UHGV virus genome: UHGV-1764726 | Direction: 5' to 3' (one strand) | DNA length: 15,733 nucleotides | Origin: a virus | Shown: in pieces, positions 4,979 through 6,916 of the stretch | Layout: the number at the start of each line of letters is the position of its first letter | How positions within the stretch are numbered: position 1 is the stretch's first letter | Notes under the pieces: generated by a model | Database searches by the model: none | Told to the model about the DNA's origin: nothing | What the model saw: only the letters and a program-made list of their open reading frames with translations | Translations under genes and position numbers: made by a program

Positions 4979-6916
4979 GTGACTCTTAAACGGGCCTGTT
5001 CCCTGCTGACGGTGAAATCCTTCAGTGAGGATGAGCGGGTGATCACCGGGATTGCGTCAACGCCTTCTCCGGATCGGGATGGTGACATCCTGGAGCCGGA
5101 GGGCGCGGAGTTTGGCAGTGCGATCCCGTTTCTCTGGCAGCATGACCATTCCCGCCCGGTGGGGCAGTGTACGGTGCGCCGGGTCAGCGAAGGGCTGGAA
5201 ATCACGGCAACACTGGTGAAGCCCGTACCGGATATGCCGTCGCAACTGGCTGCCCGGCTGGATGAGGTCTGGGCGGCCATTAAGACCGGGCTGGTCAGGG
5301 GGCTGTCCGTGGGCTTCCGTCCCCATGAATACACCTTTCTGGACGGAGGCGGACTGCATTTTCTGCGCTGGGAACTGATGGAGGTGTCTGCCGTCACCGT
5401 GCCCGCGAATGCGGAATGCACCATCCGGACCATTAAATCTTACGACCGCCCGTTTTCTGCCGCGTCCGGCAACCGGAAACCGGTGGTGAAAATCGCATCT
5501 TCTGCCGGCGCTGCGGCACAGTCAACAACCGTTTTTCATAAGGAAAAGACCATAATGAATATTGGCGAACAGATTAAAAGTTTTGAAAACAAGCGTGCAG
5601 CGCTGGCAGCCTCCCTTGAGGAGGTCATGACCAAAGCCGCAGAGGAAGGGCGCACGCTGGATGTGGAGGAGGAAGAGCATTACGACAACACCGCAGCGGA
5701 AATCCGTCAGGTGGATGCGCACCTGAAGCGCCTGCGTGAACTGGAAGCCGGTAAGGCCGCCACGGCGCAGCCGGTGAAACAGGCCGGTAACGGGAATGTG
5801 GTCGCGGTGGCTTCTGCGCCGGTGATCCGTGTGGAGCAGAAACTGGATAAGGGGATTGGTTTCGCACGTTTTGCCAAATCACTGGCTGCGGCTAAAGGTG
5901 TCCGCTCTGAAGCCCTGGAAGTGGCCCGTCGTCAGTATCCGGATGACAGTCGTCTGCATCATGTCCTGAAATCGGCAGTGGGCGCGGGGACCACCACGGA
6001 TCCGCAGTGGGCAGGCAGCCTGTCTGAATATCAGGAATACGCACAGGACTTTATTGATTACCTGCGTCCTCAGACCATTATCGGGCGATTTGGTCAGGGC
6101 GGGATCCCTGCACTTCGTCAGGTGCCGTTCAATATCCGTGTGCACGCCCAGGTGTCCGGCGGTGCTGCCGGCTGGGTGGGTGAGGGTAAGGCAAAACCCC
6201 TGACGAAGTTTGATTTTGAATCCATCACCTTCAGTCATGCGAAGGTGTCGGCCATTGCGGTACTGACGGAAGAATTGATCCGTTTTTCCAGTCCGGCTGC
6301 TGATGCACTGGTCCGTAATGCGCTGGCGGAAGCGGTGGTGGCGCGTCTGGATACAGACTTTGTGGACCCGAAAAAAGCCGCAGTGGCAGATGTCTCCCCG
6401 GCGTCCATCACCCATGATGTGAAGGGCACGGCATCAACCGGTAACCCGGATGCGGATGCAGAGGCTGCGTTTGGACAGTTTGTGGCAGCAAACCTGCAGC
6501 CCACCGGTGCGGTCTGGCTGATGTCCAGCACCAATGCCCTGGCACTGTCCATGCGTAAAAATGCGCTGGGTCAGAAAGAATACCCGGACATGACCCTGCT
6601 GGGTGGCTCCTTCCAGGGGCTGCCGGTGATTGTCTCCCAGTACGTGGGTGACCAGCTGGTGCTGGTGAATGCCCCGGATATTTATCTGGCGGATGACGGC
6701 GGCGTGGCAGTGGATATGTCCCGCGAGGCATCACTGGAAATGCAGTCTGAGCCGACCGGCGACAGTACCACGCCGTCCCCGGTGGAGCTGGTTTCCATGT
6801 TCCAGACAGGCAGCGTGGCCATCCGTGCGGAGCGCTGGATCAACTGGCGTCGTCGCCGTACCGCGGCGGTGACGGTGATCACCGGAGTGAACTACGGCAG
6901 TGCGTCCGGCGGCTGA
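4979..6916 (+). CDS. HK97-family prohead protease domain (about residues 1-165) fused in frame to an HK97-fold major capsid protein with coiled-coil delta-like region
   Basis: N-terminus ITGIASTPSPDRDGDILEP...LWQHDHSRPVGQ...GLSVGFRP...LMEVSAVTVPANAECTI fits the prohead protease signature; from about residue 193 a coiled-coil segment then a capsid-sized domain. GTG start with SD CAGGAGG. An internal ATG at 5555 is preceded by SD AAGGAAAAG. Confidence 0.8.
   Translation: MTLKRACSLLTVKSFSEDERVITGIASTPSPDRDGDILEPEGAEFGSAIPFLWQHDHSRPVGQCTVRRVSEGLEITATLVKPVPDMPSQLAARLDEVWAAIKTGLVRGLSVGFRPHEYTFLDGGGLHFLRWELMEVSAVTVPANAECTIRTIKSYDRPFSAASGNRKPVVKIASSAGAAAQSTTVFHKEKTIMNIGEQIKSFENKRAALAASLEEVMTKAAEEGRTLDVEEEEHYDNTAAEIRQVDAHLKRLRELEAGKAATAQPVKQAGNGNVVAVASAPVIRVEQKLDKGIGFARFAKSLAAAKGVRSEALEVARRQYPDDSRLHHVLKSAVGAGTTTDPQWAGSLSEYQEYAQDFIDYLRPQTIIGRFGQGGIPALRQVPFNIRVHAQVSGGAAGWVGEGKAKPLTKFDFESITFSHAKVSAIAVLTEELIRFSSPAADALVRNALAEAVVARLDTDFVDPKKAAVADVSPASITHDVKGTASTGNPDADAEAAFGQFVAANLQPTGAVWLMSSTNALALSMRKNALGQKEYPDMTLLGGSFQGLPVIVSQYVGDQLVLVNAPDIYLADDGGVAVDMSREASLEMQSEPTGDSTTPSPVELVSMFQTGSVAIRAERWINWRRRRTAAVTVITGVNYGSASGG

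Follow-up and report, generated by a model that had tools for sequence, protein, structure and literature searches.

A conserved candidate start site for capsid protein inside the protease-capsid fusion gene of a Shiga-toxin-type prophage

How is a maturation protease provided to a phage head when the protease and the capsid protein are encoded in one and the same reading frame? The question is raised by positions 4979-6916 of the virus genome UHGV-1764726, a stretch of 15,733 nt which is referred to here, at its full length, as the window. In this gene a single open reading frame (ORF) begins with a prohead protease domain, continues through a linker and a delta (scaffolding) region, and ends with an HK97-fold capsid domain (Table 1). 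An earlier model-made annotation based on the letters of the window (the sequence-only reading) noticed an ATG preceded by a Shine-Dalgarno (SD) sequence at the junction of the protease and capsid parts, and proposed that two products are made from the one frame. The relatives of the gene support this proposal strongly by a conserved start codon, a position-specific SD, a trough in RNA structure, and the starts of the capsid genes in those relatives where the two genes are split. On this comparison we consider it quite probable that the one frame encodes two proteins, a 69-kDa protease-capsid fusion and a 48-kDa capsid precursor, the latter produced by nested in-frame initiation.

The internal start site and its conservation

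The 645-aa protein was modelled with AlphaFold (AF2) using 70 homologues, and the model has a mean predicted local distance difference test (pLDDT) score of 85.5. The in-frame ATG at 5555-5557 encodes M193 and is located exactly at the junction, as had been claimed: in the model M193 separates the disordered linker from the first long helix, which begins 2 residues later. The SD in front of it turned out differently. It had been described as strong, at 5540-5548 with a spacing of 6, but the pairing part is the TAAGGA listed in Table 1, which is moderate and lies 10 nt from the ATG; the AAAAG tail of the proposed SD does not pair with the 3' end of 16S rRNA. An SD as good as that of the window precedes ~10% of the other in-frame ATGs in related ORFs. 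The G+C content (GC) at 5530-5600 is 0.34 compared to 0.60 for the whole ORF, and the 50-nt folding energy in this region is -2 to -3.5 kcal/mol compared to -10 to -22 kcal/mol elsewhere in the ORF. The signal in the window exceeds chance because of its position, its local composition and folding, and its conservation in relatives.

The relatives were collected in two sets, a genome set of 80 loci from different species (35-58% identity to the query) and a viral set of 80 viral contigs (44-100% identity). Both sets together gave 138 fused loci, and the pooled and de-duplicated set contains 116 distinct fused junctions with 35-77% identity. The genome set has 60 fused and 22 split loci, a Burkholderia phage being counted among the split ones. 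At the point where the delta domain starts, 59 of the 60 fused loci carry an in-frame start codon (ATG in 55, GTG in 2 and TTG in 2), and the single exception has an ATG eight codons upstream of this point. In the viral set 78 of the 80 contigs are fused, and all 78 have ATG or GTG at the start of the delta domain. When the sets are pooled the start codon is found at the exact boundary in 115 of the 116 distinct junctions; it is ATG in 108 of them, whereas by chance 15% of 8-codon windows in these ORFs would contain an ATG (p = 2e-77).

These start codons are preceded by SD sequences. The energy of pairing with the anti-SD sequence averages -7.5 kcal/mol at the junction start and -3.0 kcal/mol at 808 other in-frame ATGs (p = 1.5e-22); the corresponding average at the starts of split capsid genes is -5.9 kcal/mol. 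The signal peaks sharply for 8-mers whose first base is at -16 to -13, and falls to near zero on either side. The spacing to the start codon is 4-9 nt and the SD is found in all three codon registers; therefore the conservation is in nucleotides and not in amino acids. The enterobacterial relatives with 58-77% identity give the same picture at closer range, in that the AGGA core is invariant and the flanks, the spacing, the register and the encoded residues vary.

The junction is also an open region in the relatives, with a 50-nt folding energy of -7.3 kcal/mol versus -13 to -15 kcal/mol elsewhere and a GC of 0.47 versus 0.60. Compared to the 5' start of the same fused ORFs the junction site is equally rich in SD sequences and less structured. 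These 5' starts are ATG in 104 of 112 cases and have ordinary SDs. The window itself has a GTG, and a general weakening of the 5' start was considered as a feature of the fused genes, but it was rejected on the basis of these 104 relatives. The product which would be made from the nested start has a median length of 462 aa, and stand-alone capsid genes have one of 465 aa.

A comparison with relatives for a stop codon at the junction had been suggested, and the 22 split loci of the genome set made it possible. In the Burkholderia phage vB_FUB47a (L002) the protease gene (1905-2543) and the capsid gene (2557-3891) are separate, in the order terminase, protease, capsid gene, small ORF, portal. 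When its capsid protein is aligned to that of the window, Met1 falls on M193, and stand-alone capsid representatives begin at query residue 193-196; the internal ATG thus corresponds by homology to the true start of a capsid gene. Six split loci (L038, L056, L066, L068, L078, L082) have both genes in the same frame with one stop codon between them, so that one in-frame stop is all that sets them apart from a fusion. In several of these six the intervening stop is the TAA of a TAAGGA SD. Fusion would in the six loci require one substitution or read-through of the stop codon.

When the capsid part is used to build a neighbour-joining tree, fused and split loci are interspersed in it and the state changes at least 12 times. 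Such frequent switching makes most sense if the capsid start is functional in either state. One clade of nine loci consists of fusions throughout. Its 4-fold degenerate sites have an identity of 0.40, where random sequence would give 0.33, which means that they are near saturation, and still the SD and the ATG are kept in 9/9 members, each in a different local sequence. This retention in the face of near-saturated synonymous sites argues for purifying selection on the internal site.

Other readings of the junction were tried. In the window the SD is part of caTAAGGA, and the out-of-frame TAA in it is found 16 nt before the ATG, as is the real stop in the split Burkholderia phage. The idea that it is a relic stop which has been bypassed by a frameshift was dropped, because closer relatives read aaaAAGGAaac or ttAAAGGAa without a TAA, and the match is most simply one to an optimal SD. 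Frameshifting or termination near the junction, by which a free protease could be released, was considered as well: inspection by eye showed no slippery heptamer, the variability of the linker leaves no room for a conserved one, and the other two frames are open for no more than 34 and 21 codons ahead of their stops at 5539 and 5553.

The fused protein and its occurrence

The prohead-protease-like domain proposed for the N-terminus is present. Peptidase_S78 (PF04586) in Pfam matches aa 48-152 with 34.7 bits at a cut-off of 21, and an alignment of the domain to HK97 gp4 with hhalign has a probability of 96.9 (E 1.3e-10). In this alignment H55 and S110 of the fusion fall on H65 and S114 of gp4, which we take to be the catalytic residues of the HK97 protease. 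Structure prediction of the full ORF, which had been called for, gave a confident, beta-rich domain at aa 1-145, and a fold search found it to be herpesvirus-assemblin / T4 gp21-like; a protease fold is thus present in the model. The domain is somewhat shorter than the 165 residues first assigned to it, as the fold ends near residue 145-155. A search with the sequence against solved structures returned capsid relatives only and zero matches for the protease domain. The predicted activity of the S78 domain is cleavage of the capsid precursor.

The linker (aa 146-189) has a pLDDT below 50, and its alignment columns consist mostly of gaps, its length being variable. The delta region is modelled as two long helices (195-223 and 229-262), a disordered part (263-292) and short helices (293-332); the helices at 195-262 form a helical scaffolding segment, in agreement with the coiled-coil segment which had been expected after the protease. 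A match to residues 4-70 of 9gyi_B, a stand-alone major head protein, covers residues 199-267. The rest of the model to the C-terminus is filled by an alpha/beta domain. Pfam finds Phage_capsid (PF05065) at aa 386-635 with 52.5 bits (cut-off 24.2), profile matches in the PDB are 9d9w and 8gta, and Foldseek matches the capsid part to the capsid proteins of Bxb1, HK97, D3 and T5 at a probability of 1.00. With E values of 1e-14 to 1e-10 for Bxb1 and HK97, the assignment of an HK97-fold capsid domain has been borne out. A candidate for the maturation cleavage is K331/S332 (VLK/SAVGAG), proposed from its resemblance to HK97 K103/S104. With hhalign HK97 gp5 can be aligned only weakly (probability 3%) and from residue 363 onwards, which does not include K331/S332.

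The window belongs to an E. coli Shiga-toxin-type prophage. The frame is open for all 645 codons from GTG 4979, with both Pfam domains passing their cut-offs, and in a PHROG search phrog_617 'major head protein' spans aa 1-639. The claim that protease and capsid lie in one frame without any stop is thus confirmed, and no stop or frameshift separates two genes in other copies either: the same ORF is found uninterrupted at ≥99% identity in 804 E. coli records. Of 5426 complete E. coli genomes 1255 carry the fusion, and a match over the full length was obtained in 1252. The phages which carry the fused ORF at 95-99.5% identity are BP-4795 (98.6%), JLK-2012 and Stx1a-converting phages (Stx, Shiga toxin).

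The annotation pipeline PGAP (NCBI) calls exactly 4979-6916 as a coding sequence (CDS) in E. coli (WP_000173031.1). In the BP-4795 record the equivalent is a single CDS, ORF56, and in JLK-2012 it is labelled 'putative major head protein/prohead proteinase'. Because the gene is found in E. coli genomes and Stx phages, and is called as a single CDS by PGAP and in BP-4795, it is real, functional and already annotated, and since it is present in working phages it is no decayed pseudogene. It should be noted that the protease-capsid fusion itself is consequently already known. It is also widespread: of the 150 best representatives of clusters at 50% identity most are 630-680 aa long and match the query end to end, and the fused length is found in more than 130 such clusters.

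In the best-matching chromosome, that of E. coli SW070917, the portal gene (L001 11150-12735) is annotated as frameshifted and incomplete and the adjoining fusion gene is intact. Some copies of the prophage are therefore defective.

A small feature of the 5' start may be mentioned here. An out-of-frame ATG followed immediately by TGA (ATGTGA, 4977-4982) overlaps GTG 4979 and is served by the same SD, AGGAGG. This start-stop mini-ORF could compete with initiation of the full-length fusion.

Alternative explanations and a model for protease loading

The most serious alternative to nested initiation postulates that only the 69-kDa polyprotein is made, so that each capsid subunit has its own protease, and that the internal SD and ATG are unused leftovers from the time before the fusion. 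Relics of this kind are plausible in young fusions, as split and fused forms interconvert often, and the SD of the window is only moderate. The fused ORFs have ordinary, good 5' starts without visible weakening, and the single-ORF 'major capsid and protease fusion protein' of small actinophages is annotated without a second product. We nevertheless find this explanation unlikely. The signal survives in 115 of 116 distinct fusions, the SD at the junction is at least as strong as that of split capsid genes, and it is focused on the exact position where the structure is open. It persists in the all-fused clade with its near-saturated synonymous sites, and the SD core and ATG stay while the flanks are randomised and the codon register shifts.

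Could the purine-rich motif and the Met serve something other than initiation, such as an SD-like pause for folding of the protease, or a site for cleavage or recognition in the linker? Many relatives share linker peptides such as PKEG and KKG, but selection on the peptide is no explanation for a motif which occurs in three registers and encodes different residues (K-E, K-G, E-E-G, K-G-A). A pause would fit with the location exactly between two independently folding domains, but a pause site does not need a trough in structure and GC centred on an ATG. Moreover, ATG, GTG or TTG always follows the motif at 4-9 nt, and where the Met is substituted it is by codons of the start type (GTG, TTG). 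A role outside initiation therefore seems very improbable to us. An artefact or a defect, where a frameshift in sequencing or assembly or a mutation in a decaying prophage has merged two genes, is effectively refuted. Decayed copies exist, as the frameshifted portal gene next door in SW070917 demonstrates, but the uninterrupted ORF recurs at ≥99% identity in the E. coli records and in sequenced Stx phage genomes, the fused length in the >130 representative clusters, and the fusion itself in 138 independent loci.

Several points weigh against nested initiation as we propose it. The case for use of the internal site is one of sequence comparison throughout. The SD of the window is moderate, not significant when taken alone, and slightly far from the ATG at 10 nt. 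The loci are phylogenetically related and the p-values given above overstate their independence. Since conversion between the split and the fused form is frequent some fusions may be young, with the old start signal not yet lost. Finally, a prohead made entirely of fusion protein is physically possible and would, by a rough estimate, fill ~1/3 of the interior, which means that free capsid protein is not provably required. We found no proteomic or ribosome-profiling data on the products of this gene in the literature.

The model which we propose for nested initiation is as follows. Ribosomes starting at GTG 4979 would make the 69-kDa chain of serine protease, flexible linker, delta domain and shell domain. 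Ribosomes binding to the TAAGGA in the AT-rich, unstructured end of the linker would start at ATG 5555 and make the 48-kDa delta-capsid precursor, the counterpart of the product of the separate capsid gene in split relatives. Both chains are expected to co-assemble into capsomers and proheads, because the delta and shell domains are common to both. Each fusion subunit would tether one protease domain inside the prohead and thus replace the non-covalent C-terminal targeting of HK97 gp4. The protease would then cut off the delta domains and itself to leave one mature shell protein of ~33 kDa. The dose of protease per head would be set by the ratio of the two initiation rates. The sequence-only reading had suggested that a few protease copies are incorporated per capsid; this number finds no support, the internal site across relatives being at least as good as the 5' start.

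We also think it likely, with a little less confidence than for the gene of the window, that the same holds for HK97-like protease-capsid fusions in general, that is, for the >130 clusters at 50% identity in Proteobacteria and beyond, including the Stx phages found in ~1/4 of complete E. coli genomes. These would then be dual-coding nested genes, in which the conserved internal site gives the free precursor and the 5' start gives a subunit which brings a covalently tethered protease into a lattice position. The initiation ratio would determine the dose, and one stop codon would be enough to switch between the fused and the split state.

In phage lambda the C and Nu3 genes for protease and scaffold are nested in frame, and the capsid protein gpE has a separate gene. 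The analogy to C/Nu3 which was drawn for the window is valid in part. At the level of the sequence both have an N-terminal protease in a long ORF and an internal in-frame start with a ribosome-binding site at the boundary, from which the C-terminal assembly domain would be made alone; in lambda the protease is directed into the prohead by the C-terminal part which both products have in common, and the same logic is proposed here. The analogy fails for the nested product: the ORF 5555-6916 holds the whole capsid domain and no dedicated scaffold, so that its product would be a capsid protein with a built-in scaffolding domain, whereas that of lambda is the separate scaffold Nu3. The proteases are also of different families, S49/ClpP-like in lambda and S78 here. 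The nested scheme of protease and scaffold has been summarised for lambda, herpes simplex virus 1 (HSV-1) and the archaeal virus HFTV1, and has been shown for HFTV1 gp17/gp17.5 by ribosome profiling (bioRxiv 10.64898/2026.09.13.751334). Unlike the gene studied here, HSV UL26/UL26.5 and HFTV1 gp17/gp17.5 give a nested product which is scaffold only, and the capsid protein is encoded separately. The short product of HSV-1 is made from its own transcript and no internal ribosome-binding site on a shared mRNA is involved.

The comparison with HK97 gp4/gp5 is close with respect to the proteins: the protease family, the aligned catalytic residues and the capsid fold are the same, and an N-terminal delta domain acts as scaffold. 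The gene organisation is different, since gp4 and gp5 are separate genes (3348-4025 and 4028-5185) with the portal upstream, and here one ORF is followed by the portal. In HK97 gp4 is targeted non-covalently. A single ORF with protease, scaffold-like region and HK97-fold capsid in a lambdoid enterobacterial prophage is also what has been reported, under the name 'tripartite capsid gene', for Salmonella phage Gifsy-2. In contrast to the window, in which the sole protease family match is Peptidase_S78 and the fold is assemblin-like, Gifsy-2 reportedly has a ClpP-like (S14/S49) protease, and its head is said to contain a decoration protein like lambda gpD. Single-ORF fusions are further recognised in routine annotation of actinobacteriophages as 'major capsid and protease fusion protein' (e.g. 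Arthrobacter clusters AN, AU and AW; Microbacterium cluster EE). Their hosts and sequences are distant, and an internal start is unmentioned in the papers found. In the literature as a whole our search found no report or proposal of an internal start in a protease-capsid fusion; the full text of the Gifsy-2 paper (Effantin et al. 2010, Virology 402:355) was outside this search. A preprint on CBASS escape deals with a fusion of protease and scaffold and has no bearing on the present gene.

At present the annotation of such a gene is a single 'major capsid protein' of ~645 aa. Should ribosomes use the nested start, the main structural product is absent from thousands of prophage records, and the size predicted for the capsid protein is off by ~20 kDa. 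Two routes for loading the maturation protease are known: it either has a targeting tail which acts non-covalently (HK97) or is fused to a separate scaffold (lambda, herpesviruses, HFTV1). Fusion to the capsid subunit itself, with the dose controlled by two competing start sites, would be a third route, and would extend the scheme of lambda C/Nu3 and UL26/UL26.5 to the capsid protein itself. It would also explain the frequent alternation between fused and split forms in evolution. The inducible Stx phages of E. coli offer a simple and genetically tractable system for the study of protease stoichiometry in head assembly.

Neighbouring genes

Table 1. Coordinates of the features discussed, as positions in the window
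Feature	Coordinates	Strand	Remarks
Small terminase	2694-3257		HK97-like head-and-tail module
Large terminase	3254-4915		HK97-like head-and-tail module
SD of the full-length GTG start, AGGAGG	4968-4973	+	anti-SD duplex -10.3 kcal/mol; 5 nt to GTG 4979
Full-length ORF	4979-6916	+	GTG start; 645 aa, 69.1 kDa; protease, linker, delta (scaffolding) domain, HK97-fold capsid domain
Peptidase_S78 (HK97-family) prohead serine protease domain	4979-5413	+	aa 1-145; H55, S110 and E135 invariant in 70 homologues
Disordered linker	5414-5554	+	aa 146-192; variable length; final codons hold the putative internal ribosome-binding site
Internal SD core, TAAGGA	5539-5544	+	within codons cat-aag-gaa; -6.2 kcal/mol; 10 nt to ATG 5555
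Nested in-frame ORF (putative free capsid precursor, delta + capsid)	5555-6916	+	ATG 5555 = M193; 453 aa, 48.3 kDa
Delta (scaffolding) region	5555-5971	+	aa 193-331; 3' boundary tentative
HK97-fold capsid shell domain	5972-6913	+	predicted mature protein ~314 aa, ~33 kDa
73-aa ORF, conserved (phrog_829)	6961-7182		between capsid and portal genes; overlaps portal start by 55 nt
Portal	7128-8492		downstream of the fused ORF
299-aa ORF	8489-9388		overlaps portal stop codon (ATGA)

The order small terminase, large terminase, protease-capsid, small ORF and portal (2694-8492) is kept in vB_FUB47a (L002 1-5451); in HK97 the portal precedes the protease and the capsid gene. A terminator-like hairpin with a T-run is found at 4940-4966 between the large terminase and the fused gene. 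A similar GC stem and T-run is located just upstream of the fused ORF in seven other loci (L003, L005, L012, L015, L047, L077, L080), and in the HK97 record a 'putative terminator' is annotated at the corresponding position upstream of gp4.

Downstream of the fused gene, an ORF at the position of the 73-aa ORF is present in BP-4795 and in Burkholderia phage vB_FUB47a. The 299-aa ORF which follows the portal has matches to PHROG 'portal protein' families which are confined to the C-terminal parts of those families (e.g. 676-859 of 859 in phrog_2271), and a weak match to CBM_5_12; its equivalent in BP-4795 is ORF59 of 461 aa, also labelled portal protein. It appears to be a module of variable length which is fused to the portal in some phages. 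Beyond it are genes for a head-tail connector, a head closure protein, a gp10-like protein, a tail completion protein, the major tail protein and the tape measure protein. The C-terminal half (aa 121-237) of the major tail protein (10922-11638) matches the Hoc-like, Ig-type decoration families phrog_2973 and phrog_4069.

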